Positions 5,077 through 29,675 are shown, counted from the stretch's first letter. The stretch: 35,405 nucleotides of DNA from Patescibacteria group bacterium (GCA_038061835.1 JBBTYJ010000017.1:12442-47846); one strand, 5' to 3'. The notes: generated by a model from the letters alone, not told the origin. A program made the numbers and translations.

Positions 5077-5077
5077 A

Positions 5078-11065: not shown

Positions 11066-12718
11066 ATGCAACATTTCCCAGAACTATTTGAAGCCATGCT
11101 TAGGGAACGTGGCATCACTCCTGAAGAACAAGAGGGTTTTCTAAATCCCGATTATGAGAAACTTCATAATCCGCTCGCATTACCCGATATGGAGAAGGCT
11201 CGCGACAGAGTAATTAAGGCGGTAAAAGACAATGAACATGTTGTTGTCTTTTCCGATTATGACTGCGATGGTTTACCGGGAGCAGTAGTACTTTCTGATT
11301 TTTTTGCCCGGATAGGGTACAACAATATTTCCTTCTATGTTCCGCATAGGCATGATGAAGGTTTTGGTCTCAATCAAGATGCTATAAAAGAAATTATCAC
11401 ACGCGGCACAAAACTCCTTATCACAATTGACTGTGGTATTGCAGATGCGAAAGAAGTAGCGCTTGCCAATGAAAATGGTGTCGATGTCATTGTCACCGAT
11501 CATCACAAACCCAATCCTCTGTCAGCGGGCGGACTGCCGAATGCTTACGCTATTGTTAATCAAAACAGAGATGACTCGGATTACCCGTTCAAAGGACTCT
11601 GCGGGGCGGCATTAGCATTCAAATTGGTACAGGCCGTTGTTTTACAAGAGACATTCGGCGTTAAGCCCGGTATGGAGAAATGGTCTCTGGATATGGTAGC
11701 CATTGCTACCCTGTCGGATATGGTGCCTCTTCTTGATGAGAATAGAATTTTTGCGCGCTTCGGACTCTCGGTATTGCGCAAGTCTCCCAGACCGGGACTT
11801 GCCGCACTTTTCAAAAAAATGAATCTTGATCAAAGTACCGTCTCAGAAGACGATGTTACTTTTATGATTACTCCGCGTATTAACGCCGCTTCACGCATGG
11901 GCGTGCCGAAGGATGCCTTCCAACTTTTAAGTACAAAAGATTACAGTGAAGCCGAAAGGCTCGCTCTCTACTTGGAACAAATAAACAATGAGAGAAAGGG
12001 CGTGGTGGCAAGTATTGTGAAGGAAGCAAAATTTCGGCTCGCAGGTCGAGAAGATTTGCCCGATGTTATTGTTATTGGCAATCCAGAGTGGCGCCCGGCT
12101 CTTCTTGGCCTGGTCGCCAATTCACTTGTTGAAGAATACGAAAGACCGGTTTTTATTTGGGGTAGAAGCGGAGATGGAACGCTTAAGGGATCTTGTCGTT
12201 CGTACAATGGTTATGATCTTTTTGCTTTGATGAATATTGCGAGTGGCGCGTTTATAGAATTCGGTGGACACACTGGGGCTGGCGGATTTTCCGTTACTCT
12301 CGAAAGTCTCACTACTCTCGAAGAGAAATTATCTCAGGCCTTATCGAACCTGGAGGCGGGGTCTTCAAGTGGCGATCTCTCTTTATTTGACATAAACTTG
12401 GATGATATTGGGGAAAATCTCTGGAATTTGGTCTCAAGTTTTGCGCCATTCGGTATGGGGAACAAGAAGCCGATTTTTAAAATTCCCAAAGCAGAAATAA
12501 AGTCAGTCAGAAAATTTGGTAAAGAAAGCAATCATCTCGAAGTTACATTTAACAGTGGAAAGAATGAAATCAAGGCCATTTCTTTTTTCTCGAGCCCGGA
12601 TTCTTATCCTACCCCTCTTACTCCCGGTACACGTGTCTCTCTACTTGCTAATCTCGAAAAATCATATTTCAGAAATTATCCAGAGTTACGCTTAAGGATT
12701 GTTGATATAGAACCATAA
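11066..12718 (+). CDS. recJ: ssDNA-specific exonuclease RecJ
   Basis: DYDCDG, TIDCG, TDHH, PRINAASR, GGH, APFGMGN motifs. Confidence 0.96.
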   Translation: MQHFPELFEAMLRERGITPEEQEGFLNPDYEKLHNPLALPDMEKARDRVIKAVKDNEHVVVFSDYDCDGLPGAVVLSDFFARIGYNNISFYVPHRHDEGFGLNQDAIKEIITRGTKLLITIDCGIADAKEVALANENGVDVIVTDHHKPNPLSAGGLPNAYAIVNQNRDDSDYPFKGLCGAALAFKLVQAVVLQETFGVKPGMEKWSLDMVAIATLSDMVPLLDENRIFARFGLSVLRKSPRPGLAALFKKMNLDQSTVSEDDVTFMITPRINAASRMGVPKDAFQLLSTKDYSEAERLALYLEQINNERKGVVASIVKEAKFRLAGREDLPDVIVIGNPEWRPALLGLVANSLVEEYERPVFIWGRSGDGTLKGSCRSYNGYDLFALMNIASGAFIEFGGHTGAGGFSVTLESLTTLEEKLSQALSNLEAGSSSGDLSLFDINLDDIGENLWNLVSSFAPFGMGNKKPIFKIPKAEIKSVRKFGKESNHLEVTFNSGKNEIKAISFFSSPDSYPTPLTPGTRVSLLANLEKSYFRNYPELRLRIVDIEP

Positions 12719-12831
12719 ATCAGGATAAAGTCATCCATACTGCATGTGGATATCATTAAAAATACCAGAAATGAATTATGTTAGAATAAGGGGGAGGATT
12801 TTTTAATTTATATAAACTTAAAAGTATTATT

Positions 12832-13191
12832 ATGAATTTGCCACTTTGGTACAAAATTGTCTCTATAATTTTCTTGATCTTGCTTTTACCCTCTCTTTTA
12901 TTAATGGCCATGACCATAACAGGTTTTGTTGAGGGAGATAGCACAATTTTTACCATAGGAATACTGCCTTCATTTGTGGGCATTCTTTACGAAATAATGA
13001 TTATCCTAACTGCACTTTTCAAAAAATCGTGGAAATTCTTTTTGTTGACCCAAAGTGTGTTTTTGATTGCATGGCTATTTCTTTGGTTACTTTTGGATGG
13101 TAGAAATAAACTTATGGGTGTTGGTTTGGTAGTCATCCTGTCTTTGATAACCATTGTATTTAATAAAAAATTACTTGGAAGCAATTCGTAA
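12832..13191 (+). CDS. Four-TM membrane protein (cargo between recJ 3'-end duplicates)
   Basis: 119 aa, very hydrophobic, AT-rich. Confidence 0.7.
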   Translation: MNLPLWYKIVSIIFLILLLPSLLLMAMTITGFVEGDSTIFTIGILPSFVGILYEIMIILTALFKKSWKFFLLTQSVFLIAWLFLWLLLDGRNKLMGVGLVVILSLITIVFNKKLLGSNS

Positions 13192-13210
13192 TAAAAGATT
13201 AAGAGGAATG

Positions 13211-13280
13211 TAATCTAGAAAAATTCTATTTCAGAAATTATCCAGAGTTACGCTTAAGAATTGTTGGCATAGAGCCTTAG
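13211..13280 (+). repeat. Orphan duplicate of the recJ 3' end (copy of 12649-12718)
   Basis: 61/70 identical with a 32-bp exact core; encodes NLEKFYFRNYPELRLRIVGIEP*. Confidence 0.92.
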
Positions 13281-13407
13281 ATGTCAGACACTATTTATGA
13301 GGTAGACAACAACAAATACTGTGTGTTGGCTATGTTTTTGAAAAAGTGTATAGTGGGGCAAGATTGCTCAAATTGTTCAGCCTATGCTTAATTAGGAGGA
13401 TCGAAAT

Positions 13408-13608
13408 ATGTTAGGTTTATTCATTCTTATCGGTAGATTGCTCGTTGGTCAGACGATAGAGGTGAAAATCACAATCGATAAAAGTCCAGATTTATCAAAC
13501 AAAACATGGAGGTGGTCTCAGCTTAATGGTTTCGGTACGGAAGAGCATTTCGAGGGTAAGGGAACCAGCCCGTACCACAAGTTTCTTGGATACTGGCGCC
13601 ATCGTTAG
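13408..13608 (+). CDS. Small hypothetical protein, 66 aa
   Basis: AGGAGG SD 8 nt upstream, hydrophobic N-terminus, followed by a terminator hairpin. Confidence 0.5.
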   Translation: MLGLFILIGRLLVGQTIEVKITIDKSPDLSNKTWRWSQLNGFGTEEHFEGKGTSPYHKFLGYWRHR

Positions 13609-13638
13609 AATTGGGAGGTGTGCGAATGAAAGGTCAGC

Positions 13639-13668
13639 AAACCCCATCTACAAAATAGATGGGGTTTT
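13639..13668 (+). terminator. Intrinsic terminator
   Basis: AAACCCCATCTA-caaaa-TAGATGGGGTTTT. Confidence 0.7.
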
Positions 13669-13737
13669 ACAAAAATATATAAGAATAATTCTCGAAGATA
13701 GTAAACTGTGGAAAATTATAAATGATATAATTCCAAA

Positions 13738-14232
13738 ATGATTACGATCTATACAGACGGAGCGTCGCGAGGGAATCCGGGACCGGGAGGGTGGGGCGCA
13801 ATCATTTTAAATGACGATAGGGTCGTAGAAATTGGAGGACGAGAAAACCACACGACAAACAATAGAATGGAACTGACGGGAGCTATCAAAGCCTTGGAGT
13901 TTGTCCCGGTATCATTTGCCGATGATTGTGTGCTTTTTACTGATTCTGAATATGTGATGAAGGGTATAACGGCATGGATACACCGGTGGCAGAAGAAAGG
14001 TTGGAAGACCGCGAATAAAAAACCGGTCTTAAACCAGGATTTGTGGCAAGAACTTCTGAATGTGACCAAAAATGTGGAAAAACACCTGCCTGCCGGTAGG
14101 CAGGTTGAATGGAAATATGTGGCTGGACATTCCGGTAATCGTTTGAATGACAGATGTGATGAAATCGCCACCAATTTTGCGGATAATATTCCACTCGTTC
14201 TCTATAATGGATCAAAAGACAAATACAAATAG
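13738..14232 (+). CDS. rnhA: Ribonuclease HI
   Basis: IYTDGASRGNPGPGGWG, TTNNRMEL, TDSEYV, GHSG..NDRCD. Confidence 0.96.
   Translation: MITIYTDGASRGNPGPGGWGAIILNDDRVVEIGGRENHTTNNRMELTGAIKALEFVPVSFADDCVLFTDSEYVMKGITAWIHRWQKKGWKTANKKPVLNQDLWQELLNVTKNVEKHLPAGRQVEWKYVAGHSGNRLNDRCDEIATNFADNIPLVLYNGSKDKYK
14084..14105. repeat. Small palindromic element inside rnhA (encodes LPAGRQ)
   Basis: ACCTGCCT-GCCGGT-AGGCAGGT. Confidence 0.7.
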
Positions 14233-15637
14233 CATATTCATTTTTATTTTCGGTTTTATTCTGGGCATTTTGTTTTCTTCTTTTGTTTTTATTGCACCAT
14301 TGGTGAGTGTTTTGGTAGTCGTTATTAGCATGGCTCTATTCATTGTAGAGAAAATTTGGAGTAAAGAAATAAACAAGGAAGTTTTGTTTCTTGCTCTTGC
14401 GCTCTTGTCATTTGGTTTAGGCGCTCTACGTTATTCTGTGAAAGATTTTCATGAGGCATCCATCCCATTGTCGATCGGTGTTGTAATCAGTGAACCGGAA
14501 CAGAAAGAAAGCGTCACTCGCTTTGTTTTTCAAGCAAATAATGGAGAAAAAGTTTTGGTAAGCACTGATTTGTATAATCCTGTTCAATATGGAGATAAGG
14601 TTGAAATTAAGGGGAAACTTCAAAAGCCGGGTGTTATAGATGACGGCGCGAGCCGACCGTTTGATTATGGCAAATATCTTTCCAAGGATAATATTTATTT
14701 CACTATGAGTTTCGCCAAAGTTGAAATACTTTCGCATGGTCATGGCAATTTTCTCAAACAAGCGCTTTTTAAAATAAAAGGGAATTTTATCGGGAAAACC
14801 AAAGAAATCTTGGCAGAACCGTATGCCGGTCTTCTCTCCGGACTCATTATTGCCGGTAAGGAAGCAATGCCGAAAGATATTCTTGAGGAATTCAAACGCG
14901 CCGGAGTGATACATATCGTAGTGCTTTCTGGTTACAATATTACAATCATTGCCGAGTTTATGAAAACGATATTTAGAAGCATAAAGTTTTCCGTTGTCGG
15001 TATTATCTTGTTTGTCATCATGACAGGGGGCGAGGCCACGGTGGTTCGCGCGGCGCTTATGGTTCTGACTGTCATTCTAGCGAAAGGGTTAGGAAGAAAT
15101 TTCTCGGCGCCACGGGCGCTGCTTGTCGTCGCTTTCCTGATGCTTCTTCATAATCCTAAAATTTTGGTATTCGATCCATCCTTTCAGCTTTCTTTTCTTG
15201 CCACTTGCGGACTTATATTTGTCACTCCGATAGTTGAAAGGTATTTGACTCGAGTACCGGATAAGTGGGGATTGCGCGCCATAATTTCTGTTACCCTCGC
15301 GACTCAAATTACGGTCCTACCCTTTCTTATTTATTCCACTGGTAATATCTCTCTAGTTTCTCTCCCGGCCAATATTCTTATTCTGCTTTTTATCCCCTAT
15401 ACGATGCTTATAGGTTTTATCGCTGTTCTAGTCGCCCATCTTTCGTTAGTCATTGCTCTGCCATTCTCGTATATAGCTCATATTCTTCTCGCTTGGATTC
15501 TCGGCGTTTCGCACTCTTTAGGGAATCTTTCTTTTGCATCTATCGCTGTTTCATCCCCCTCACCCTTATTGGTTGTGATAATTTATCTCGTCATTATTAC
15601 TTTTGTATGGCGTTCGCAACCCCGAAGGACAGCATAG
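14207..15637 (+). CDS. comEC: ComEC competence channel, N-terminal part (DUF4131/OB + competence domain)
   Basis: FDYGKYL, GVIHIVVLSGYNI, VVRAALM, DPSFQLSFLAT; many TMs; start placed at ATG 14207. Confidence 0.9.
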   Translation: MDQKTNTNSIFIFIFGFILGILFSSFVFIAPLVSVLVVVISMALFIVEKIWSKEINKEVLFLALALLSFGLGALRYSVKDFHEASIPLSIGVVISEPEQKESVTRFVFQANNGEKVLVSTDLYNPVQYGDKVEIKGKLQKPGVIDDGASRPFDYGKYLSKDNIYFTMSFAKVEILSHGHGNFLKQALFKIKGNFIGKTKEILAEPYAGLLSGLIIAGKEAMPKDILEEFKRAGVIHIVVLSGYNITIIAEFMKTIFRSIKFSVVGIILFVIMTGGEATVVRAALMVLTVILAKGLGRNFSAPRALLVVAFLMLLHNPKILVFDPSFQLSFLATCGLIFVTPIVERYLTRVPDKWGLRAIISVTLATQITVLPFLIYSTGNISLVSLPANILILLFIPYTMLIGFIAVLVAHLSLVIALPFSYIAHILLAWILGVSHSLGNLSFASIAVSSPSPLLVVIIYLVIITFVWRSQPRRTA

Positions 15638-15662
15638 CTGTCTACGGGGCAAGAATTCTTTT

Positions 15663-16193
15663 TTACTGTTGTGCTTTTGTAAAATTTTGTTCGACGTTGC
15701 TCCAATTTAAGTTTTCGAAAAAAGCTTCAATATAATTCTTTTTTTCTGCTGGCGTGTAGTCAATAAAATATGCATGTTCCCACATATCGAGCGCTAGAAT
15801 TGGGGAAAGACCAACAAGCTGTCCGAGATGGTGCTCGTCAACCCAACTATGTAGAAGCTGTTTGGAAATCGGGTCGTAATACACAATCGCCCAGCCTACT
15901 CCGCGTGTTAGGGCCAATACTTTAAATTTTTCTAAGTCAAATCCAGATTTGGTAAATCCGCTATCGTTTGAGAGTGGTTGTGGACCACCTTCGAAATGTG
16001 AGAAATAGTATTCATGGTTTCTCATACCATTGAACTCGAATGGGAATCGGCGATTATAATCTTTCTCAGCCAATAAATCGTTCGTATTTTTGACATAACC
16101 TGCATAAAGTTTGAGGTGTTCTGAAATGGCTTTTTCCGAGATACCTTTGAGTTTCGGAATATTAAATTTTTTCTCTTCGAAATTTTTTATCAT
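15663..16193 (-). CDS. Fe/Mn superoxide dismutase family protein (short)
   Basis: EHLKLYAGYV, NHEYYF, DMWEHAYFIDY motifs. Confidence 0.88.
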   Translation of the reverse strand: MIKNFEEKKFNIPKLKGISEKAISEHLKLYAGYVKNTNDLLAEKDYNRRFPFEFNGMRNHEYYFSHFEGGPQPLSNDSGFTKSGFDLEKFKVLALTRGVGWAIVYYDPISKQLLHSWVDEHHLGQLVGLSPILALDMWEHAYFIDYTPAEKKNYIEAFFENLNWSNVEQNFTKAQQ

Positions 16194-16221
16194 AATAACA
16201 TTATACTATAGTTATACACCG

Positions 16222-17079
16222 ATGAGTTTTATAATAAAATATCCTAGAGCAGTGGTGGTTGGCGTTCTTATTCTTTTTAATCTTCTTGTTTGGGCGGCAA
16301 TTTATCAGAGACAACCAAGTGATATTTTGACTGTTTATTTTCTTGATATAGGCCAGGGCGATGCTATTTTTATAGATTCTCCCGGGCATGGTAGAGCTCT
16401 TATTGATGGCGGAGCTAATAGAAAGATTTTGAGTGAACTTGGGAAGATTTTACCATTTGCCGATAAACGTATAGATGTAATGATAGAAACTCATCCCGAC
16501 AAGGATCATATTGGCGGATTACCGGAAGTGGCAAGTCGTTATGAAATCGGAATGTTTCTCGAACCAGGAGTAGAATCAGACAACAACATTGATGATGAAT
16601 TAAAAAAAAGAATAGTAGAGACTAATGTTCCAAGTTTATTGGCAAGAAGAGGAATGGTCATTAATTTTGGCGATGGGGTGAAATTTCAAATACTTTTTCC
16701 AAACCAAGATGTTTCAAGATGGGAAACAAACGATGCTTCTATTGTGGCGAGATTGGTTTATGGAAACAAATCCTTACTTTTGACCGGTGATTCTCCTATT
16801 AAGACGGAAAATATTTTACTAAAACTTGATTCTATCAGTTTGGATTCCGATGTGCTTAAGGCCGGACACCATGGTTCGCGCACTTCCACTTCTCTCGCAT
16901 ACGCGCAGACGGTTTCTCCGGAATATGCTGTAATCTCTGCTGGTAAAAATAATTCCTACGGTCATCCGCACCAGGAAGTGCTCAACATTTTGGCAAGTGT
17001 TGGTGCTAAGATTGTTAGCACCGTCGAATTGGGGACTATCAAATTTGAAACAGATGGTAAAACTCTAGAACTTAAATAA
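16222..17079 (+). CDS. ComEC/Rec2-type metallo-beta-lactamase-fold protein (stand-alone)
   Basis: FLDIGQGDA, THPDKDHIGG, LTGD, GHHGS, NSYGHPH; N-terminal TM; start ATG 16222. Confidence 0.88.
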   Translation: MSFIIKYPRAVVVGVLILFNLLVWAAIYQRQPSDILTVYFLDIGQGDAIFIDSPGHGRALIDGGANRKILSELGKILPFADKRIDVMIETHPDKDHIGGLPEVASRYEIGMFLEPGVESDNNIDDELKKRIVETNVPSLLARRGMVINFGDGVKFQILFPNQDVSRWETNDASIVARLVYGNKSLLLTGDSPIKTENILLKLDSISLDSDVLKAGHHGSRTSTSLAYAQTVSPEYAVISAGKNNSYGHPHQEVLNILASVGAKIVSTVELGTIKFETDGKTLELK

Positions 17080-17084
17080 TTGTC

Positions 17085-17981
17085 ATGCTAAATCTCAAAA
17101 ATCTACAAAAAAATATTGTACTCGCGCCTTATACTACCTATAAAATAGGCGGAAAGGCAGATTACTTTTTCACGGCTAATAATAAGAGTGATTTGGTCGA
17201 AGCGCTTTCATGTGTCAAGACAGAAAACATACCCTTTTTTGTATTAGGGGGCGGATCAAATATTCTCGTGGGAGATAAAGGATTCAGAGGATTAGTAATA
17301 CACAATCAAGCCCAAAATTTTAAATTTGAAGATAATTTACTGATATCCGAAAGTGGTGCCATCATTTCTGATCTCATTGATATCTCTTTGAAACATTGTC
17401 TTTCTGGTTTAGAACGTTTTGCCGGAATACCCGGCACTGTTGGCGGAGCTATTTATCAAAATATACATTTTTTATCGCCCGATAGGACAAGTACTTTTTA
17501 TATAGAATCAATCGTCAAGAGCGGTTTGGTTTTAGAGGATGGAATAGAAAGGGAAGTGGATAAAAATTATTTCGCATTCGGATACGACGACAGTATTTTA
17601 CACCACAACAAAAACATTTTTGTGTTAGAAATCACTTTCACATTGAAAAATGGAGACCCCGATCTTATTCAATCCTGGATTACCAATAATCTGGAATGGA
17701 GAAAACAAAAACAGGAGAGATTGGAAAAATTTCCCTCCTGCGGTTCAGTGTTTAAGAAAATAAAAGGAATCGGTGCCGGACGTTTGATAGAACAATGTGG
17801 TCTGAAGGGAAAACGAATTGGCGGAGCGCTCATTTCTGAAAAGCATGCAAATTATATTGTGAACACAGGGAATGCAACGGCAAGAGATGTCCGCGAAATG
17901 ATAGCGTTCATTCAAGAAGAAGTTTTCAAAAAGACAGGATATAAACTCGAATCTGAAGTGGGGTTTATTGGGGAATTTTAA
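17085..17981 (+). CDS. murB: UDP-N-acetylenolpyruvoylglucosamine reductase
   Basis: TTYKIGG, LGGGSNIL, GIPGTVGGA, SCGSVFK, SEKHANYIVN, LESEV. Confidence 0.95.
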   Translation: MLNLKNLQKNIVLAPYTTYKIGGKADYFFTANNKSDLVEALSCVKTENIPFFVLGGGSNILVGDKGFRGLVIHNQAQNFKFEDNLLISESGAIISDLIDISLKHCLSGLERFAGIPGTVGGAIYQNIHFLSPDRTSTFYIESIVKSGLVLEDGIEREVDKNYFAFGYDDSILHHNKNIFVLEITFTLKNGDPDLIQSWITNNLEWRKQKQERLEKFPSCGSVFKKIKGIGAGRLIEQCGLKGKRIGGALISEKHANYIVNTGNATARDVREMIAFIQEEVFKKTGYKLESEVGFIGEF

Positions 17982-18011
17982 ATCACTCCGGCTTTTTTGA
18001 GAGTACTGTGG
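17978..18011 (-). repeat. Orphan duplicate of the rpmB 3' end (copy of 19035-19068)
   Basis: 30/34 identical; reads HSTLKKAGVI* versus HSVLKKAGVI*; its stop overlaps the murB stop (TTAA). Confidence 0.88.
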
Positions 18012-18028
18012 ACAATCAAATTTTCTTA

Positions 18029-18064
18029 TACGTTATAATATCACTACCGTGAATGACTAACGTA
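18029..18064. promoter_or_regulatory. 36-bp palindromic site B1; contains TATAAT and ends on the A of the ATG
   Basis: TACGTTA-TAATA-TCACTACCGTGA-ATGAC-TAACGTA. Confidence 0.75.
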
Positions 18065-18630
18065 TGGGCAAGATTGAAGAAAAAAGTCAAAAGAAAGGTA
18101 ATAGAGAACATTTACAGAAACTGATTCTTCAGACAGTAGCAGATGTCGGCATGTTAAGTATTGCACTAGTGGCGCCCAATGTGTCCAGGGCTATGTATAA
18201 ACTTGGGTTAGTTCCCAAATGGAGACAAAATGAATACGTCAATTCTTCTGCTAGCAAGCTAGTTAAACGAGGGCTACTCTTTTATGACGGTAAGAAATAT
18301 TGCATGACTTCTAAGGGGGAAGACCTTCTTTGTCAGTGGCAATTTGCTGATTTTAAACTGGAAAGACCCAAGAAATGGGACAGAAAATGGAGAGTAATTA
18401 TTTTTGATATCCCGGAGAAGAAAAGAAAGATACGGGATCAGGTTAGAACTCTATTTAAATCAGCTGGCTTCTATCTTTTGCAAGACAGTGTCTGGGTTTA
18501 TCCGTATGATTGTGAAGATCTTCTAACTCTTCTTAAGTCTAATCTTGGGGTAGGTAAGAATGTTTTATATCTCATCGTTGATGAAATTGAAAATGATAAA
18601 CATCTCCGCGAATCTTTCAATTTGATCTAA
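18064..18630 (+). CDS. wHTH + PaaX/Cas2-like domain protein (paralogue B)
   Basis: Same 188-aa length and colinear with 8751..9317 (about 125/188 identical by manual count). Confidence 0.8.
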   Translation: MGKIEEKSQKKGNREHLQKLILQTVADVGMLSIALVAPNVSRAMYKLGLVPKWRQNEYVNSSASKLVKRGLLFYDGKKYCMTSKGEDLLCQWQFADFKLERPKKWDRKWRVIIFDIPEKKRKIRDQVRTLFKSAGFYLLQDSVWVYPYDCEDLLTLLKSNLGVGKNVLYLIVDEIENDKHLRESFNLI

Positions 18631-18665
18631 TTGCGCATTCTGTTTAAATTGTATTAATTCTACTC

Positions 18666-18701
18666 TACGTTAATAACTCACGGTCGTGAATTAATAACGT
18701 A
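18666..18701. repeat. 36-bp palindromic site B2
   Basis: TACGTTA-ATAAC-TCACGGTCGTGA-ATTAA-TAACGTA, 35 nt after the stop. Confidence 0.85.
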
Positions 18702-18776
18702 AGTTGGATTTTAAAGAAAATGAAAGCCGCCACACCGAGAGTATCCAGTGTGGCGAACTCTCTTGCACGGCGGCCA

Positions 18777-18944
18777 TCAGTCTTCCGAAGGCTCTTCGAT
18801 GAGTAGTCCGGTAGTCTTATCGACGATGAGAAATCTCCCTTCGTCGTCCACGATACTGTATACTCGTATCTTCGGTAACGGGGACGCAAATGAACCATCA
18901 TCTTCCAGTTCGGGTGGTCTTTGGCCGATCTCATAACTTTCCAT
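18777..18944 (-). CDS. Small acidic protein, 55 aa (not in ORF track)
   Basis: MESYEIGQRPPELEDDGSFASPLPKIRVYSIVDDEGRFLIVDKTTGLLIEEPSED; TAAGGAGGT 7 nt upstream; hairpin 18728-18755 downstream. Confidence 0.65.
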   Translation of the reverse strand: MESYEIGQRPPELEDDGSFASPLPKIRVYSIVDDEGRFLIVDKTTGLLIEEPSED

Positions 18945-19034
18945 TACTTGTACCTCCTTAACCTACCAAAACGTTACTTCCTCTTATCATATTACTATAT
19001 GGACTGACAATTATCCAGCGTTATTGATACAGTA

Positions 19035-19277
19035 TTAAATCACCCCGGCTTTTTTGAGGACACTGTGGGCGCCATGTCTGTTTATGGTCTTGATAGCGCG
19101 CGTAGAGATAGTGAGAGTAATTGTCTTTTTGAGTTCGGGCACGTAAATGCGTTTTTTCTGAAGATTGGGATACTTGCGAACCATTCCCGTGGGGTTAAAT
19201 TGAGTCGCGCGAGTTCTGTTGGAGTATCCTCCGCCCTTTTTTGAACCCTTTTTACTTATGGGACAAATTCTTGCCAT
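19035..19277 (-). CDS. rpmB: 50S ribosomal protein L28
   Basis: MARICPISKK...RKYPNLQKKR...ISTRAIKTI. Confidence 0.9.
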   Translation of the reverse strand: MARICPISKKGSKKGGGYSNRTRATQFNPTGMVRKYPNLQKKRIYVPELKKTITLTISTRAIKTINRHGAHSVLKKAGVI

Positions 19278-19309
19278 GTGAGAGATAACTTACATGATAT
19301 AATCGATAA

Positions 19310-20414: not shown

Positions 20415-20431
20415 AATCAAGAATTAAGAAA

Positions 20432-20902
20432 ATGCGAAGAAAAATAAAAAATAAACCCAAAATCCAGCCTGACTACGCCTACGATTCAGAAAAGGTCACC
20501 AAATTTATCAATTATTGTATGGAGCGCGGCAAGAAGGCTACCGCGAGGAAAATTGTTTATGAGTCTCTCGAAGACATTAAGGAAAAAACTAAAAATCCGA
20601 ATCCTCTGGAGGTTTTTGAATCGGCTCTCAAGAACACCGGCCCCACCATGGAAGTTCGTTCCAGACGCGTCGGCGGAGCCAACTATCAGATTCCCAGAGA
20701 AGTGCGTCCGGAACGTCGCCAATTTCTCTCAATGAAATGGATTATTGATGCCGCGCGCGCCAAGAAAGGCAAACCTATGCATGAAAAACTGGCTGAAGAA
20801 ATTATTGCCGCTTCCAAAAACGAAGGTGATGCTGTCAAAAAACGCGAGAACACCCATAAGATGGCCGAAGCCAACAAGGCCTTCGCCCACTTTGCTTGGT
20901 AA
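20432..20902 (+). CDS. rpsG: 30S ribosomal protein S7
   Basis: EVRSRRVGGANYQIP, HKMAEANKAFAH. Confidence 0.97.
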   Translation: MRRKIKNKPKIQPDYAYDSEKVTKFINYCMERGKKATARKIVYESLEDIKEKTKNPNPLEVFESALKNTGPTMEVRSRRVGGANYQIPREVRPERRQFLSMKWIIDAARAKKGKPMHEKLAEEIIAASKNEGDAVKKRENTHKMAEANKAFAHFAW

Positions 20903-20907
20903 TTTTT

Positions 20908-23088
20908 ATGGAACGAGATTATCCTCTAGAACGAGTGCGTAATTTTGGAATTATTGCTCACATTGACGCCGGCAAGACCACCACTTCCGAGAGAGTACTT
21001 TTTTACACCGGTTCACAGCATAATATCGGTGAAGTTCATGAAGGAGACACCACCACTGACTGGATGGAACAAGAACGTGAGCGCGGTATTACAATCACTG
21101 CCGCAGCTATTACTTGTTTCTGGGCACCGACGTACTTGCCCGATGCCGAGAGACAGAAGAAAGAAAAAAAATTTCGTTTCAATATTATTGATACCCCCGG
21201 GCATATTGATTTTACCGTAGAAGTGAAACGTTCTCTGCGGGTTCTGGACGGCGCAGTAGTTGTGTTCGACGGTGTAGCTGGCGTCGAACCGCAATCCGAA
21301 ACCAACTGGCGTTATGCTGAAGAAGCTCAGGTGCCTCGTATTTGTTTTGTTAACAAACTGGATCGGACTGGCGCTTCATTTGAGCGCTCATACAAATCCA
21401 TTCTTGATCGGCTTTCGAAAAAGGCTGTTCGCATGCAAATTCCTATTGGCGAAGAGGCTAAACACGAAGGAGTCATAGATTTACTCAGAATGAAAGCTTA
21501 TTACTTCGAAGGCAATATGGGTAATTTAGTGGTGGAAAAGGACCTGACTACGCAGGCAGGAATTTCAGAAAATCTTCAAGTTAGTGCGAAGAAATATCGC
21601 GCTGAATTGGTGGAAAAAATTGCAGAAAGCGACGATACCTTGATTAACGATTATCTCGAAGGCAAAGAGATTGCTCTCGATGTATTGAAGTCCGCATTAC
21701 GCAAAGCAGTAATTGCCAATAAAATTTTCCCAGTTTTTGCCGGCTCAGCTCTCAAGAATAAGGGTGTCCAGCTTGTGCTTGACGCGGTTGTTGATCTTCT
21801 ACCATCACCTCTTGATATTCCCTCCACTAAGGGTATTGATCCAAGGACCGGAGAAGAAATAGAGCGTCATGCTTCAGACACGGAGCCTTTTTCGGCGCTT
21901 GCCTTTAAACTTCAGTCCGATCCGTTTGTCGGGCAGCTAACATTTTTCCGTGTTTACTCTGGCACGGTAGAATCAGGCACTTATTTATACAATGCTACCA
22001 CTGATGAGAAAGAACGCTTGGGCCGTATTGTGCGTCTCCAAGCAAATCAGAGAGAAGAAGTGAAAAAGGTTTTTGCCGGAGAAATAGCCGCCGCCGTTGG
22101 TCTTAAAAATGCCAAAACCTCGCACACTTTTTCGGACGAGTCGAATCCCATTGTGCTTGATCGGATTACTTTCCCTGAACCGGTTATTTCTCTCCGTATT
22201 GAGCCGAAGACCAAGGCTGACCAAGAGAAGATGGGCATGGCTCTCAAGCGTCTTTCAGATGAAGACCCGACTTTCAAAATTAAATCAGACCAAGAAACAG
22301 GCGAGACGGTTATCATGGGTATGGGTGAATTGCATTTAGAAATTATTGTCGATCGCATGAAGCGAGAATTTTCTGTCGAAGCCAATGTTGGTAAACCTCA
22401 AGTGGCATACAAAGAAACTATTACTGGCGAAGCAGAAGTGGAAAATAAATATATTAAACAGACTGGAGGCAAGGGTCAGTACGGACACGTCAAGATTAAA
22501 ATTAAGCCTCTTCCTAAATATGATCCGGACGAAAAGGTGCCAAGAAATGCTCATCGTGAGCCGGGATTTGAATTTATCGATGCTATTAAAGGAGGAGTAA
22601 TCCCGCAAGAATTTATTCCGGCCGTGGAGAAGGGGATTAAGGAAGCAATGGATAGAGGTATTGTTGCCGGATATAAGATGACTGATATTTCTGCCGAACT
22701 GAATTATGGTTCGTATCACGATGTTGACTCTTCAGAGATTGCTTACAAAATTGCCGCCTCACAGGCATTTCAAGAAGCGGCCAAACGCGCCAAACCAGTA
22801 ATTCTCGAACCTATTATGAAAGTTGAAGTAGTTATTCCAGAAAAGTTCATGGGTGATATTACCGGTAATCTCTCTGGCAAACGCGGGCAGATTGAAGCGA
22901 TGGAAGACCGTGATGCTCTCAAGGTGATACGAGCCAAGGTTCCCTTATCTGAAATGTTTGGATACGTTACTTCTCTCCGCTCTATGACCGAAGGTCGCGG
23001 CTCTTCCACTATGGAATTCGACCACTATGCCATCGTGCCGACTAATGTCGCTCAAGGTATCATCGAAGCTCGTACAGGAGGGAAGTAG
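20908..23088 (+). CDS. fusA: Elongation factor G
   Basis: AHIDAGKTT, ERGITI, DTPGH, NKLD, GMGELHLE; start ATG 20908. Confidence 0.98.
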   Translation: MERDYPLERVRNFGIIAHIDAGKTTTSERVLFYTGSQHNIGEVHEGDTTTDWMEQERERGITITAAAITCFWAPTYLPDAERQKKEKKFRFNIIDTPGHIDFTVEVKRSLRVLDGAVVVFDGVAGVEPQSETNWRYAEEAQVPRICFVNKLDRTGASFERSYKSILDRLSKKAVRMQIPIGEEAKHEGVIDLLRMKAYYFEGNMGNLVVEKDLTTQAGISENLQVSAKKYRAELVEKIAESDDTLINDYLEGKEIALDVLKSALRKAVIANKIFPVFAGSALKNKGVQLVLDAVVDLLPSPLDIPSTKGIDPRTGEEIERHASDTEPFSALAFKLQSDPFVGQLTFFRVYSGTVESGTYLYNATTDEKERLGRIVRLQANQREEVKKVFAGEIAAAVGLKNAKTSHTFSDESNPIVLDRITFPEPVISLRIEPKTKADQEKMGMALKRLSDEDPTFKIKSDQETGETVIMGMGELHLEIIVDRMKREFSVEANVGKPQVAYKETITGEAEVENKYIKQTGGKGQYGHVKIKIKPLPKYDPDEKVPRNAHREPGFEFIDAIKGGVIPQEFIPAVEKGIKEAMDRGIVAGYKMTDISAELNYGSYHDVDSSEIAYKIAASQAFQEAAKRAKPVILEPIMKVEVVIPEKFMGDITGNLSGKRGQIEAMEDRDALKVIRAKVPLSEMFGYVTSLRSMTEGRGSSTMEFDHYAIVPTNVAQGIIEARTGGK

Positions 23089-23132
23089 CAGAAGGGTTGG
23101 AAAATCATGGTACTCTCGTATATAATACCCCC

Positions 23133-23339
23133 ATGAGTAATTTAGCTATAAAAATTGGTCCGAGTTCTAAAGGCAAGAAATTGCTGGTGGAAATCGATGC
23201 CAACAAATTAGAACGTTTAGCTTCAAATCTAGGCCTCTTTAGTCCAAACTTTATTAAAAGTATTGAAGTAGCAGAACGCGATTTCCGCGCCGGTAGAACT
23301 AGAACTCTTACTTCTCTACGAAAATTGAGGTTGACTTAA
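23133..23339 (+). CDS. Putative antitoxin of a type II TA pair
   Basis: Small gene directly upstream of a RelE-like toxin; C-terminal SIEVAERDFRAGRT; TATAAT at 23121-23126. Confidence 0.65.
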   Translation: MSNLAIKIGPSSKGKKLLVEIDANKLERLASNLGLFSPNFIKSIEVAERDFRAGRTRTLTSLRKLRLT

Positions 23340-23344
23340 GTTTG

Positions 23345-23614
23345 ATGAGGGTAATTGTTACAGCCGAGTTCGAGAAAAGATATAAAGATTTGACGATTTC
23401 AATTCAGAAAAAATCAGAAAAACAAGAAAAAATTTTTCGTAGCAATCCATTTCATCCATCTCTTCATACTGAAAAATTAGAACCAAGAAACAAGGAGCTT
23501 TGGAGCATTCGCGTTGATAAAAGTTATCGCATCATTTTCAGATTCATTAATGGCAACACGGTTTTGTTTCTGACTATTGGTCCTCACGATTGGATATATA
23601 AGTTAAAGTTCTAA
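23345..23614 (+). CDS. RelE/ParE-superfamily toxin
   Basis: FEKRYK, NPFHPSLHTEKL, WSIRVDKSYRIIF, IGPHD. Confidence 0.85.
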   Translation: MRVIVTAEFEKRYKDLTISIQKKSEKQEKIFRSNPFHPSLHTEKLEPRNKELWSIRVDKSYRIIFRFINGNTVLFLTIGPHDWIYKLKF

Positions 23615-23620
23615 TTTTTA

Positions 23621-23722
23621 ACCGAAGATCGCGGTTCTTCCACTATGGAATTCGACCACTACGCCATCGTGCCGACTAATGTCGCCCAAGGCATCATCGA
23701 AGCTCGTACGGGTTCCAAATAA
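23621..23722 (+). repeat. Orphan duplicate of the fusA 3' end (copy of 22987-23088)
   Basis: 90/102 identical, mostly third-position changes; ends with its own stop. Confidence 0.95.
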
Positions 23723-23730
23723 TACAAAAG

Positions 23731-24435: not shown

Positions 24436-24608
24436 TTGTAATAATCCTATAGTAAAACGATTGGCACACAATGTAGCATATTATTCAAGAATTACAACCC
24501 CAGTGGTGCCATAAGTAGTGGACGGATACAGACAGTTGACAGAGTATCTTTTAAGGTATATAATTAAGGTAGAAATTAAAGGTTAAGAGAAGAAGGAGGA
24601 GGTGATAT

Positions 24609-24839: not shown

Positions 24840-24871
24840 CAGACGAACCGAAGAGCGTGTTGACGAAGATG

Positions 24872-24907
24872 GGGCTGCGATTTCCTCCGGGAAATCGTAG
24901 CCCTTTA
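24872..24907 (+). terminator. Hairpin terminator
   Basis: GGGCTGCGATTTCC-TCCG-GGAAATCGTAGCCC followed by TTT. Confidence 0.6.
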
Positions 24908-25087
24908 CATTTTATGTGGTTTTATATACTATGCCTCTTACGCGTTATACGCCGTTCTGGCTTGATCTTTGAGATTTTCTCAATAGGGTTAGCTAAGCGG
25001 CTTAGTATTGCGTTTCAAAAAACTTATTAACCCGCCTGCCGTGTCGGGCAGGACTTAGCAACTTATCTAACTTATAAATTAATTATT

Positions 25088-26281: not shown

Positions 26282-26290
26282 TAAATTAAA

Positions 26291-26716
26291 GTGCCTAAAG
26301 CACCTGCAAAAAAGAAACCAACTGTCAAAAAGTCGGTTAAAAAAGAGAGGGTTTCCAAACCCAAAACTCCGGGTCTCAACGAACCCAAGCGAGCTAAGGT
26401 TGAGGAAGTAACTTCCCGATTGCGTATTCGGGTCAGGGCTTACGAGTCCAAGATCTTGGACATGTCGGTGAAACAGATCATAGACACTGCGCTTCGCTAT
26501 GATGCTAAAATACAGGGTCCGATTCCTCTGCCAACAGAAATAAAAAAGTACACTGTCAATCGTGCCGCGTTTATCTACAAAAATGCGCGAGAACAATTCG
26601 AGATGCGAGTTCACAAACGATTAATTGACATCTTGAATCCAACTCCTAAGATTATCGAATCACTGACCAATTTGAGTTTACCAAGCGGGGTGAATATCGA
26701 TGTGAAATTAATCTAA
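26291..26716 (+). CDS. rpsJ: 30S ribosomal protein S10 with Lys-rich N-terminal extension
   Basis: LRIRVRAY, GPIPLPT, REQFEMRVHKRLIDI. Confidence 0.93.
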   Translation: MPKAPAKKKPTVKKSVKKERVSKPKTPGLNEPKRAKVEEVTSRLRIRVRAYESKILDMSVKQIIDTALRYDAKIQGPIPLPTEIKKYTVNRAAFIYKNAREQFEMRVHKRLIDILNPTPKIIESLTNLSLPSGVNIDVKLI

Positions 26717-26740
26717 TTCTTCGGTCAAGATAAGGATAAA

Positions 26741-27229
26741 ATGAACAAGATTATTGCCAAAAAAGTGAATATGACCCAAATTTTCTCAGAAGCAGGGGAA
26801 GTTTTTCCCGTAACACTTGTTGTGGAGGATAGCAAAGGTCTCGCGAAAAAAGGTCAGACCTTAAATACGAATTCTAAAGGTCTGACCTTGGGGAGCGAAA
26901 CCTTGGAACTCAAAGAGGGAGATATCGTCACTGTCTCCGGCGTCTCGAAAGGTAAGGGATTTCAAGGGGTGGTCAAGAGACATAAATTTCAAGGCGGTCG
27001 TCGCACCCATGGTCAAAAGCATTCTGAACGCGAGGCGGGTTCGATCGGTGGTGGAGGTCGAGCAGGTGGGCGAGTTGTCAAAGGGATGCGTATGGCAGGT
27101 CGAATGGGTGGTGAACGAGTAACTGTCAAGAATCTCAAAATTATAAAAATATTGCCGGAAACCAAAGAAATCTTTATTGGTGGAGCAATACCGGGACGTC
27201 GGGGTAGCAAGGTTGAAATCAGGACATAA
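26741..27229 (+). CDS. rplC: 50S ribosomal protein L3 (internally shortened)
   Basis: KKVNMTQIF, SKGKGFQGVVKRH, MAGRMG, GAIPG. Confidence 0.93.
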   Translation: MNKIIAKKVNMTQIFSEAGEVFPVTLVVEDSKGLAKKGQTLNTNSKGLTLGSETLELKEGDIVTVSGVSKGKGFQGVVKRHKFQGGRRTHGQKHSEREAGSIGGGGRAGGRVVKGMRMAGRMGGERVTVKNLKIIKILPETKEIFIGGAIPGRRGSKVEIRT

Positions 27230-27245
27230 TGATTGATTAGCAAAT

Positions 27246-27917
27246 ATGGAATCACCGGTCTACAACATGGAAGGAAAGAAAACTGGGGACATAACTTTAC
27301 CCAAAAGTGTTTTTGATGTCCGTTGGAATGCTGACTTGGTCAAACAGGTTGCGGACTCGCTCCTTTTGGCTAAGCGCAAGAATGTGGCACACACTAAAGA
27401 CAGAAGCGAAGTGCGTGGTGGCGGTAAGAAACCATGGCAACAGAAAGGTACCGGCCGCGCCAGACATGGTTCCATCCGTTCTCCCCTTTGGGTGGGTGGC
27501 GGGGTGACTGGTGGACCAAGAAATGAAAAAAATTTTTACCGTAAGGTTTCAAAGAAGATGCGAATCAAGGCGCTATATACCATTCTTTCTCAAAAAATAA
27601 GAGATAAAGAAATCCTTTTTGTAGATTCGATCACGCTTTCTGAACCAAAGACGAAGATTGCCGTAAAGACGCTCAAGTCTCTCTCTCTAATCAAAGGAGT
27701 GGGCGACATGTTTGCTAAGAGAAATAATGCGATGGTTATTGCGCTGTTTTCCAAGAGGAAAGAGACTGAGCGCGCCTTTGATAATCTAGGTAATGTGCAA
27801 GTGCTGGAGGCCAGAAATCTCGATCCTCTTTCACTTCTAGAGTATAAATATCTTGTCATAGAAAATCCCCAGAAATCGCTTGGTGTATTGCCGGGTGTGA
27901 GTAAAACAAAATCATGA
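27246..27917 (+). CDS. rplD: 50S ribosomal protein L4
   Basis: TKDRSEVRGGGKKPWQQKGTGRARHGSIRSP. Confidence 0.96.
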   Translation: MESPVYNMEGKKTGDITLPKSVFDVRWNADLVKQVADSLLLAKRKNVAHTKDRSEVRGGGKKPWQQKGTGRARHGSIRSPLWVGGGVTGGPRNEKNFYRKVSKKMRIKALYTILSQKIRDKEILFVDSITLSEPKTKIAVKTLKSLSLIKGVGDMFAKRNNAMVIALFSKRKETERAFDNLGNVQVLEARNLDPLSLLEYKYLVIENPQKSLGVLPGVSKTKS

Positions 27918-28207
27918 TCAATCTTAATCTCACGGCGCGCAACGTCTTGCTTCGTCCTCGTATTACCGAGAAGGCTGCTCTTGGGGCAGATAAGCTAAAT
28001 GTTTACGTTTTTGAAGTGATGCTAAACGCCACTAAAAAATCTATAAGTGCCTCCGTGCGTGATGTTTACGGAGTGAAACCGGAAAAAATAAGGGTTGTAA
28101 CCATGCCTGCCAAAACCGTCTTTGTGCGAGGAAAGAAAGGAGTCAAAAGCGGAGGCAAAAAAGCGTATGTATATTTGAAGAAGGGGGACAAGATAGAAAT
28201 TGTATAA
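27914..28207 (+). CDS. rplW: 50S ribosomal protein L23
   Basis: RPRITEKA, YVFEV, KKAYVYL. Confidence 0.93.
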   Translation: MINLNLTARNVLLRPRITEKAALGADKLNVYVFEVMLNATKKSISASVRDVYGVKPEKIRVVTMPAKTVFVRGKKGVKSGGKKAYVYLKKGDKIEIV

Positions 28208-28215
28208 CTTAACAA

Positions 28216-29058
28216 ATGATGAAAAACTATAAACCCACAACCGATTCACGACGCCAAATGCTCGGAATAGATTTCCGGAAAGTTCTAACTTCGAGTAAAC
28301 CGGAAAAATCTCTGACGAGCGGTTTCAAGCGCGGTCATGGTCGCAACAATCGCGGTCGTATTACCACTCGGCACAAGGGGGGCGGTCATAAACGCCTGTT
28401 TCGAGAAGTGGATTTTTCATACGACAAATATAATATTCCTTTTGCCGTGAAAACAGTTGAATATGATCCTAACCGATCCGGTTTTATCGGACTTGTAGTC
28501 TATCGCGATGGGGAAAAAAGGTATGTACTTCTGCATAACAGCGCGCGGGTAGGAGATACTTACATCGTGTCTGAAAAGGCACCTGTCACGCCCGGAAATC
28601 GACTTCCTTTGAGCCACGTTACAATTGGCACTTTTGTCTATAATGTTGAACTTAAACATAAGGGTGGCGCTAAGATGGCTCGTTCCGGTGGCAATTATGC
28701 CGAAGTTTTGGCCAAGGATGGCGATTATGTGAATCTTAAAATACCTTCGAGCGAGGTACGCAAGGTTCCGGCTAATGCCTGGGCCACCGTCGGTGAAGTT
28801 TCAAATAATGAAAATCGTTTAGTCAATTTGGGAAAGGCCGGTCGTTCTCGTTGGCTTGGTATTCGCCCGACTGTTCGCGGTACTGCTATGAATCCAGTTG
28901 ATCATCCACACGGTGGAGGTGAAGGCAGGCAAGGTCGTGGACGCAGACGCGCTATTTCTTATTACGGCAAACCGACAGGTAAGGGTCAGAAATCCCGTCG
29001 CGCCAGAAAATATTCAAACAAATTTATTGTCAGCCGCCGCAAAGTCGGGAAGAGGTAA
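28216..29058 (+). CDS. rplB: 50S ribosomal protein L2
   Basis: GRNNRGRIT, EYDPNRS, RGTAMNPVDHPHGGGEG. Confidence 0.97.
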   Translation: MMKNYKPTTDSRRQMLGIDFRKVLTSSKPEKSLTSGFKRGHGRNNRGRITTRHKGGGHKRLFREVDFSYDKYNIPFAVKTVEYDPNRSGFIGLVVYRDGEKRYVLLHNSARVGDTYIVSEKAPVTPGNRLPLSHVTIGTFVYNVELKHKGGAKMARSGGNYAEVLAKDGDYVNLKIPSSEVRKVPANAWATVGEVSNNENRLVNLGKAGRSRWLGIRPTVRGTAMNPVDHPHGGGEGRQGRGRRRAISYYGKPTGKGQKSRRARKYSNKFIVSRRKVGKR

Positions 29059-29162
29059 TACCTCGTTTAAGTAAGAGCCATTCTTGCTTAGTTGTATTTA
29101 GTTGGAGATTTTTGATATATTTAACGTAGACTAAAGGATAGTGGACAGAATGGAGGTGACTT

Positions 29163-29490
29163 ATGTTATGTATGTAAAAAGTTTGAAAAAGTAATCGTAA
29201 CGGATCTAGGCGGTGCACTTAAACTGTTGGCTTGGCATAGCGACAAGGTGGATGGCATTTTACACACGGATGGCGGGGGAGCACCATTTATCGCTGAACG
29301 GATTAATCATGAACGTGACTCGGGTGGTGATTACACTCGCACCGGACGATTGTTTCGAGTGTCCCCACAGATCGTAGCTGAACTGAAGAAAAGAAAAATG
29401 GTTGAACCCATGATGCTGATGGGGCCAGTACGCAACAGGCTAGAGATTTCTGAGACTGGTCGCGCATGGCTTATGCGTCGAGTTAAGTAG
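29163..29490 (+). pseudogene. Small hypothetical gene, apparently frameshifted by a 4-bp duplication (cargo between rplB duplicates)
   Basis: SD GGAGGTG precedes ATG 29163; removing one ATGT copy (29172-29175) joins it to the 29227..29490 ORF. Confidence 0.5.
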
Positions 29491-29514
29491 CGATTAACCC
29501 TTAAACATAAAATA

Positions 29515-29558
29515 AAGGGGCGGAAGTTGAAATAGTTCAACCTGCCCCTTCGTTTTTT
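29515..29558 (+). terminator. Intrinsic terminator
   Basis: AAGGGGCGG..GTTGAA/TTCAAC..CTGCCCCTT then a T-run. Confidence 0.65.
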
Positions 29559-29626
29559 ATTCAAGAATTTTAATATAAAACTTGTTAATCTCGAAAACTC
29601 GTCAACCTCGCAGGTCGACAAAAAAG

Positions 29627-29675
29627 ATATTCAAACAAATTTATTGTTAGTCGCCGCAAGGTCGGGAAGAGATAA
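29627..29675 (+). repeat. Orphan duplicate of the rplB 3' end (copy of 29010-29058)
   Basis: 45/49 identical; all four differences are synonymous (YSNKFIVSRRKVGKR*). Confidence 0.93.

Follow-up and report, generated by a model that had tools for sequence, protein, structure and literature searches.

A stretch of 35,405 nucleotides from the genome of a Patescibacteria group bacterium (GCA_038061835.1; JBBTYJ010000017.1:12442-47846), hereafter the window, carries four conserved genes, recJ, rpmB, fusA, and rplB, whose 3′ ends are each present twice: once as the working tail of the intact gene, and once as a short orphan tail separated from it by 0.5–1 kb of unrelated DNA, the cargo (Table 1). 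The source genome comprises 457 kb in 24 contigs and is rated 96.8% complete; the window is part of its contig C17, and a search of sequencing runs linked the genome to groundwater metagenomes. In order, the window holds pilus genes, tpiA, pgk, recJ, rnhA, comEC, sod, mbl (metallo-β-lactamase fold), and murB; then rpmB on the minus strand, an M50 peptidase gene, rpsL, rpsG, fusA, tuf, rpsJ, and rplC; and finally rplD, rplW, rplB, rplJ, rplL, and two more genes, followed by rpsS onward. For comparison, approximately 24 kb around fusA was collected from 20 species of the same genus, labelled G000 (the source genome), G001, and so forth.

Table 1. Gene tails, cargo, and related genes of the window (positions from its first nucleotide; aa, amino acids; ORF, open reading frame)
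Feature	Coordinates	Strand	Description
Type IV pilus genes	1136..5587	+	PilB-like ATPase, PilC-like platform protein, prepilin-like ORFs; T2SSE, T2SSF, N_methyl
recJ	11066..12718	+	550 aa; Pfam DHH, DHHA1, RecJ_OB; working tail from 12649 (final 70 nt)
recJ tail pair	12649-12720 and 13211-13282	+	72 nt, 88% identical; 61/70 up to the stop
recJ cargo	12721..13210	+	490 bp; hydrophobic 119-aa ORF (12832-13191), no known family
Orphan recJ tail	13211..13282	+	22 codons and stop (TAG); 88% identical to working tail
Extra DNA between orphan recJ tail and rnhA	13283..13737	+	455 bp; small ORFs of 36 and 66/71 aa
comEC	14147..15637	+	DNA-uptake channel; Pfam Competence, DUF4131
murB	17085..17981	+	TTAA overlap between its stop and that of the orphan rpmB tail
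rpmB tail pair	19035-19068 (working) and 17978-18011 (orphan)	-	30/34 identical
Orphan rpmB tail	17978..18011	-	10 codons and stop; z = 16 against shuffles
rpmB cargo	18012..19034	+	1023 bp; 188-aa PaaX_M/Cas2-like gene 18064-18630, then ~330 bp without a clear gene
rpmB	19035..19277	-	L28, 80 aa; Ribosomal_L28; working tail 19035-19068
fusA	20896..23088	+	Elongation factor G (EF-G), 730 aa; working tail 22987-23088; at most 92% identical to genus orthologues
fusA tail pair	22987-23088 and 23621-23722	+	90/102 identical
fusA cargo	23097..23614	+	80-aa putative antitoxin 23097-23339; 90-aa RelE/ParE/HigB-like toxin 23342-23614
Orphan fusA tail	23621..23722	+	33 codons and stop
rplB	28216..29058	+	L2, 280 aa; working tail 29007-29059
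rplB tail pair	29007-29059 and 29624-29676	+	48/53 identical; 47/52 up to the stop
rplB cargo	29060..29623	+	564 bp; single ORF 29227-29490, 87 aa from TTG; database form 107 aa
Orphan rplB tail	29624..29676	+	16 codons and stop, then native rplB–rplJ spacer and rplJ

Four gene tails in two copies

The four duplicates are real. All were found where an initial annotation of the sequence had placed them, and each second copy reads in frame to a stop codon and belongs to no longer gene. Self-BLAST of the whole genome (457 kb) recovers the pairs with E = 2e-17 (recJ), 8e-4 (rpmB), 1e-32 (fusA), and 2e-12 (rplB); the rpmB pair, weak by score alone, gains support from the precise alignment of both copies at the stop codon and from a comparable orphan in G016. 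The two copies lie 490 (recJ), 1023 (rpmB), 532 (fusA), and 564 bp (rplB) apart, and, as had been claimed, the four repeats are unrelated to one another and share no motif. Genome-wide self-alignment, which the same annotation had proposed, brings to light one further tail duplicate of this kind, at recG (702 aa) on contig C10. The last 24 nt of that gene (2091-2114) recur as a 100% identical copy (2883-2906) 792 bp downstream, and the two copies bracket a 202-aa minus-strand ORF of no family. Four of the five tail duplicates of the genome fall within a 17-kb stretch.

Contigs of the Logan collection, the product of an independent assembler, bear on whether these structures could be strain chimeras. 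They stem from two samples: X1, which may be the genome's own sample, and X2, a different sample of the same study. The fusA tail, cargo, orphan, and next gene are bridged from 22876 (X1) or 22600 (X2) to 25113; rplB, its cargo, and its orphan from 26543 (X1) or 28067 (X2) to 29900; and murB, the orphan rpmB tail, and the cargo gene from 14235 to 18321 (X1) and from 16321 to 18606 (X2), in every case with 0 differences. Three of the four structures are bridged at least on one side by contigs from two samples. Among the contigs listed, none bridges the recJ junctions, where contigs end inside a 32-nt stretch in which both repeat copies agree, and none crosses 18607-19037 on the far side of the rpmB cargo; these breaks and this gap are no evidence either way. 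One X1 contig of low depth (2.8) links 29053 to 29675 through 14 nt of different sequence, and is read as a related population with an empty rplB–rplJ site, not as an excision product. Perfect 55-nt repeats 155 nt apart (contig C3 of G000, and G001, G020, and G024) were set aside as scaffold gaps of 100 N and not biology.

Two alleles of each tail

Over the 81 codons of the tails, 19.3 synonymous changes on 54.7 sites compare with 8.7 non-synonymous changes on 188.3 sites (proportions pS 0.35 and pN 0.046), corresponding to a ratio of non-synonymous to synonymous divergence, dN/dS, of 0.10 (Fisher p = 3e-8). The initial annotation had described the differences as mainly synonymous, and correctly so. 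A ratio of about 0.10 implies that the tails are two alleles, each of which evolved as the working end of a gene; most of their divergence thus arose while both copies were working ends in separate lineages. A duplicate made in place would have decayed neutrally, unlike the pattern seen. Several of the few amino acid changes sit in the orphan at residues that relatives conserve, as in the change from TEGRG to TEDRG in fusA, which fits later decay of the orphan.

The resident copy can be recognised at the rpmB locus. The stop codon of murB in G000 is overlapped (TTAA) by the orphan rpmB tail, in precisely the arrangement that the sister species G011 has with its working rpmB tail. The orphan of G016 overlaps the stop of mbl, again just like the working tails of G007, G009, and G010, where the site is empty. 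Because the orphan has kept the ancestral contact with its neighbour, it is the resident end at rpmB, and the working tail and cargo are the newcomers. At fusA in G007, it is the 13-codon orphan whose residues are typical of the genus, the working tail being the deviant copy. Identity to the orthologous tails of relatives (~75–87% between species) gave no decision on the ancestral tail: neither copy is clearly nearer to the sister species, and on the whole the working tails resemble those of relatives slightly more than the orphans do, which fits some decay of the orphans. The low dN/dS, the rpmB overlap, and the empty sites described below support the earlier proposal that DNA from a relative, carrying its own tail allele and cargo, displaced the resident tail.

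Cargo between the tails

Ten cargo ORFs were scanned against Pfam, and none matched a recombinase, transposase, or nuclease family; two scored above a family cut-off, namely, the PaaX_M/Cas2-like protein at rpmB and the RelE/ParE/HigB-like toxin at fusA. The latter reaches 34.9 bits for HigB-like_toxin (cut-off 27) and 23.3 for ParE_toxin (cut-off 23). The 80-aa ORF that lies 2 nt upstream of the toxin ORF matches no family. The same pair is found between fusA and tuf in G019 at ~80% amino acid identity, and the cargo has the make-up of a putative type II toxin–antitoxin module. At rplB, a database search with the cargo ORF returned two proteins, its own cluster and one at 64% identity; it therefore represents an orphan family, with two relatives being too few for a functional proposal. 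Behind the orphan recJ tail, the extra 455-bp stretch is missing from most relatives and follows the orphan stop directly with an ATG; it is probably an older insertion.

The 188-aa protein at rpmB combines a PaaX_M/Cas2-like domain with a weak, sub-threshold winged-helix match, and its gene is bracketed by 36-bp palindromes (18029-18064 and 18666-18701). The genome contains four copies of this gene, ~66–70% identical (window 8716-9379 and 18029-18701; contig C22 439-1093; contig C24 ~10083-10669), together with an orphan site (contig C23 916-951). Three copies inspected closely, two in the window and one on C22, each have their own 33–36-bp palindrome on both sides: TACGTTA-N22-TAACGTA in the window, and a TACAT...ATGTA variant on C22. 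Between copies the palindromes differ in their centre; the upstream one holds TATAAT and ends at the start codon. Across the genus, two hot spots carry the gene: the position behind pgk (3 of 20 species) and the interval from mbl/murB to rpmB (6 of 20). Gene and palindromes look like a self-contained and possibly mobile unit with cognate sites. The TACGTTA-N22-TAACGTA palindromes occur only around PaaX-like genes and are absent around the other cassettes.

The same sites across the genus

Gene order around fusA is conserved in the genus set, including rplB followed by rplJ, and the spacers at these loci range from minimal to long. The distance from fusA to tuf runs from ~160 bp to 2 kb, with less than 200 bp in 4 of 17 species; that from rplB to rplJ is 113–161 bp in 7 of 16 and up to 2 kb elsewhere. 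Between recJ and rnhA there are at most ~10 nt in 11 of the 14 species in which both genes were seen, and 50, 475, and 1020 nt in G006, G003, and G000, respectively. Stops abut between mbl and rpmB in G007, G009, and G010, and between murB and rpmB in G011. These short loci are empty sites; the initial annotation had advised looking for such sites in relatives, and they are at hand for fusA, rplB, recJ, and rpmB alike.

Occupied sites contain a range of small genes: MazE with MazF/PemK at rplB in G011 and G006, a nucleotidyltransferase and HepT pair between fusA and tuf in G011, a DUF2283 pair in G003, and a YkuD transpeptidase in G002. An ORF pair similar to that of G011 lies between fusA and tuf in G008, the likeness being at the ORF level. 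Four of ten occupied-site ORFs scanned against Pfam belong to no family. Orphan tails total 11 across 8 of the 20 species: fusA (G000, G007, and G018), rplB (G000, G006, and G011), rpmB (G000 and G016), mbl (G003 and G015), and recJ (G000). The insert between the new fusA tail and the 13-codon orphan of G007 is a sole 38-nt GC-rich hairpin (locus L002). In G018, the last ~27 nt of fusA and a ~65-nt spacer are repeated with a different gene after each copy, forming a small array. The proposed recurrence of capture thus stands in part: the sites do recur across the genus, and the four structures of the window are not four fresh captures, the rpmB junction being shared with G016.

A few candidates were left uncounted. 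Extra rpmB orphans in G003 (21 nt, z = 4.8) and G001 (by eye, z = 0.9 against its own tail) are too weak, and a second fusA tail in G012 (contig C68) is explained most simply by two contig ends that overlap. The contigs of G012 and G020 end within the fusA tail. At the mbl–rpmB site, murB is full length in G000, G002, G003, and G011, is a C-terminal fragment in G001, and is missing in the remaining species seen.

A proposed displacement mechanism

We consider these structures best read, and rather probably so, as the scars of homology-anchored displacement of gene 3′ ends after DNA uptake. DNA of a diverged congener probably enters through ComEC and the type IV pilus and would be handled by DprA and RecA. 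On one side it would pair with a well-conserved core gene, bringing along its own tail and the genes that lie downstream in the donor, be they a toxin–antitoxin pair, a PaaX/Cas2-like regulator, or a small orphan gene. The far end would be joined inside the tail of the recipient gene without a dedicated recombinase, either illegitimately, in the manner of homology-facilitated illegitimate recombination (HFIR), or through a single crossover of a circularised fragment of the Campbell type. The outcome would be an intact gene with a donor tail, and a resident tail that sits behind the cargo and still touches the next gene. With the neighbour 0–10 nt away or overlapping, a join farther on would damage it and a join within the tail would be harmless; given such tight packing, only joins that spare both genes would survive, and the scar would therefore be a tail duplicate.

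Thereafter, homology arms may be provided by the gene body on one side and by the orphan tail or the next gene on the other; through them a cassette could be passed on to relatives, exchanged, or lost, and homologous exchange through these arms would produce the patchy distribution in the genus. Spread by ordinary recombination would explain shared junctions beside different neighbours (murB in G000, mbl in G016), as well as the higher similarity of tails within a genome. Three elements of this account are inferred: entry through uptake of DNA, the way in which the distal end was joined, and subsequent spread through homologous recombination. The genes for such a process are present: comEC, pilB, pilC, prepilin genes, dprA, and recA, with Ku absent from the genome. 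The first of these, along with the type IV pilus genes, had been noted in the window at the outset and is confirmed by Pfam matches. As judged from its genes, the host is predicted to be able to take up and recombine DNA.

Weighing displacement against its alternatives

Several observations weigh against displacement after uptake. No donor is close enough for microhomology at the junctions or a crossover point to be read. Along fusA, sliding windows against 18 relatives yield identities of 0.79–0.88, the nearest relative shifts, and no clear breakpoint emerges. Because a sufficiently close donor is lacking, HFIR and single crossover of a circle could not be told apart. Competence itself is deduced from genes. 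Tails within the genome are 88–93% identical, above the working tails of different species (~75–87%), a likeness that needs gene conversion or crossovers inside the tail. In the downstream half of the region in relatives, 21 of 25 spacers of at least 200 bp hold cargo without an orphan of the upstream gene; cargo can thus enter or persist without a scar, or scars decay, and tail duplication is a frequent by-product of cargo entry and no requirement. Furthermore, junctions are common to species that are not sisters (G000 and G016 at rpmB, G011 and G006 at rplB, G003 and G015 at mbl), as a site-specific process could also bring about, and large serine recombinases are encoded elsewhere in 20 of 37 genus genomes surveyed, so that action in trans in other lineages is possible.

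The last two points also favour the foremost alternative, a recombinase acting in trans that inserts small cassettes at the 3′ ends of particular core genes; it could be site-specific or guided, with its gene located elsewhere or in another lineage. A cassette would then bear an attP-like mimic of the tail, and the structures would be integrase-less mobilisable elements comparable to cis-mobilizable elements (CIMEs). The shared boundaries agree within ~1–3 nt (for the rpmB orphan, 34 nt in G000 versus 33 in G016), and sites are reused across the genus. Nevertheless, boundaries vary where cargo varies: the fusA orphan measures 102 nt in G000, ~39 in G007, and ~27 in G018 (plus a 65-nt spacer), and that of rplB 52 nt in G000, with unrelated cargo, versus ~59–63 nt in G011 and G006. 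Such differences between independent events argue against a fixed attachment site. Species that share a boundary also have homologous cargo; the bases beside the rpmB junction align too between G000 and G016, and in the rplB and mbl pairs the same cargo element stops just before the orphan, as expected from descent or transfer of the whole structure. As far as these alignments go, each shared boundary points to one event, later inherited or passed on. The pairs are not sisters on a quick IQ-TREE species tree of 14 of the 20 species (six were omitted for too little data), with G011 and G006 in different main clades, and hence many losses or transfer of the whole structure would be needed.

Inspection by eye found no shared motif or inverted repeat at cassette ends or junctions, and repeats of up to 102 nt that are 7–12% diverged are unlike a short identical crossover core. 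In the source genome, no serine recombinase was found, and a single tyrosine recombinase of Xer size (325 aa) lies on another contig. Most of the 37 genomes have one tyrosine recombinase; tyrosine recombinases are on the contig of the syntenic block in just three species and there at least 27 kb from fusA, and no serine recombinase is on any contig of the block. The initial annotation was right that the cassettes lack a recombinase, no such gene lies within the block in any of the 20 species either, and the undescribed trans-acting capture mechanism that it offered as an alternative is disfavoured. We regard a trans-acting recombinase as unlikely.

More doubtful still, and in our judgement very improbable, is that the structures are decayed remnants of larger integrase-bearing islands or prophages, with the tails as the old attL and attR. 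Insertion at the 3′ end of a gene, leaving a diverged duplicate of that end, is the classic scar of an integrase element, as with e14 in icd; the element-borne end keeps the gene intact and the duplicate remains at the far side, in CIMEs as well. The layout here matches that scar, and toxin–antitoxin pairs are common as island cargo. Here, there is no integrase in the cassettes, the region, or the block of 20 relatives, and repeat lengths vary between events. Occupied sites of at most 2 kb (more than 4.4 kb after fusA in G018) are numerous in the 20 species and none has a recombinase gene, four independent islands in 17 kb would all need to have shrunk to 0.5–1 kb, and the cargo of G007 is nothing but a 38-nt hairpin. 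The larger integrase islands in relatives that would have pointed to decay were not seen in the block of the 20 species, and the sequences offer neither a recombinase in the elements or in fuller copies of them nor one fixed crossover core.

Finally, in-place duplication of a tail followed by cargo insertion, or a strain-chimera artefact, is scarcely credible: metagenome-assembled genomes can hold chimeric joins, and this one does have 55-nt perfect repeats around 100-N scaffold gaps, but contigs from two samples cross the fusA, rplB, and murB/orphan-rpmB/cargo junctions without a difference, separately assembled genomes of 7 other species have the same architecture, and a dN/dS of 0.10 at pS 0.35 is unexpected for a copy without coding function ever since it was duplicated locally.

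Relation to known systems

The closest parallel to displacement as proposed here is found in rhs genes, contact-dependent inhibition (CDI) loci, and type VI secretion system (T6SS) effectors. HFIR has been proposed for the displacement of T6SS effector–immunity modules and rhs tips (Kirchberger et al. 2017, PMC5361080), and a circular intermediate with homologous recombination for the displacement of rhs C-termini (Jackson et al. 2009, PMC2935791). As these papers describe it, a conserved gene gains a new 3′ end and linked genes by horizontal transfer; the old end is moved downstream and retains a homologous stretch, and repeats of the process build arrays. No integrase is known at these loci, and the mechanisms proposed are HFIR or homologous recombination through a circular intermediate. 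The structures here likewise have a new 3′ end and a displaced old end downstream, diverged alleles, and recurrence with different cargo. They differ in that the tip in rhs, CDI, and T6SS loci is a polymorphic toxin domain that constitutes the payload, with a linked immunity gene, whereas here the tails of recJ, rpmB, fusA, rplB, and recG are near-synonymous housekeeping alleles that encode the same residues and bring no new function, no toxin tip, and no immunity pair. The payload is a separate, free-standing cassette, in many cases a toxin–antitoxin pair, and the host has an ultra-small genome of the Patescibacteria type.

In HFIR during natural transformation (de Vries & Wackernagel 2002; Prudhomme et al. 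2002; Meier & Wackernagel 2003), as relayed in PMC5361080 and PMC3240628, a single homologous anchor imports foreign DNA without an enzyme of a mobile element. The process, in those accounts, needs uptake and RecA-type functions, and genes for both are present here. Its classic outcome is an insertion with loss of recipient DNA beyond the anchor; here, in contrast, the join would fall within the anchor's own tail and give a duplication. Single crossover of circular DNA of the Campbell type yields a gene tail, an insert, and a second tail as direct repeats, and the tail copies here are directly repeated on both sides of the insert. That process would require a circular donor molecule, and the two copies would be expected to be reciprocal chimeras of donor and recipient alleles. 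The pattern also resembles the minimal mobile elements of Neisseria, a competent organism in whose lineages different whole-gene cassettes occupy the same interval between conserved genes; these cassettes lack mobility genes and move by homologous recombination in their flanks. They are not known to be defined by duplicated gene tails, whereas here a duplicated tail would mark the first entry of a cassette.

Other features of the window and the genome

Further repeats and gene arrangements lie outside the tail duplicates. The window begins (1-455; contig C17 12032-12896) with a tandem repeat whose unit is ~153 bp and whose copies are 80–100% identical, within a gene for a BNR/Asp-box repeat protein. 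The rplC ORF (26741-27229) has just 162 aa, and its Pfam match spans part of the L3 model; this length is common across the genus and looks like a shortened L3. Between rplB and rpsS (29796-32245) lie rplJ, rplL, a 185-aa ORF without a family, and a gene with a mechanosensitive-channel domain, an interruption of the usual S10 gene order that is shared by all genus members in which this region was observed. Repeats of 35–50 bp are common to two ribosomal-operon spacers, near rplD/rplW/rplB and near rpsS/rplV/rpsC/rplP, in at least 5 species (for example, 3549-3599 and 9467-9517 in G006, and 5023-5057 and 9557-9591 in G011).

Elsewhere in the genome, contig C22 (11047-13276; locus L072 1048-3277) has three copies of a ~100–146-bp non-coding repeat that bracket two cargo sets, one a 122-aa membrane ORF and the other a GNAT acetyltransferase with a cyclodipeptide-synthase-like gene. 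The repeat region has no Rfam match, and its layout looks like a small cassette array. On contig C21 (5879-6630), a 220-aa ORF lies between perfect 27-nt hairpin repeats.

Significance

The genomes of Patescibacteria, or the candidate phyla radiation (CPR), are very small and contain few classical mobile elements, yet show extensive gene exchange. To our knowledge, the chromosomal movement of toxin–antitoxin modules is poorly explained. The scars described here would constitute a record, at the sequence level, of small accessory genes, toxin–antitoxin modules especially, entering CPR genomes without an integrase. In the 20-species record, the ends of conserved genes are reused and the resident tail is displaced, and tight packing accounts for the duplicated-tail outcome. 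A groundwater study names ribosomal protein genes and tuf among transferred genes (PMC12455944). We found no published account of such scars in Patescibacteria or in housekeeping gene tails, within an incomplete coverage of the literature. What is new here is a probable displacement of a known kind acting on housekeeping genes, documented by its recurrence across a genus.

More speculatively, and only as a tentative suggestion, tail-flanked cassettes may constitute a class of recombinase-free mobile elements in naturally competent ultra-small bacteria. The gene body and orphan tail would then work as movable homology arms that target the same highly conserved gene, and selfish cargo such as a toxin–antitoxin pair or the PaaX/Cas2-like unit could home to the same gene end in any relative by using the uptake machinery and RecA of the host. 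A cassette could exit through recombination between its two tails. If so, this tail-cassette route would underlie much of the turnover of accessory genes in streamlined genomes that have hardly any transposases or integrases.

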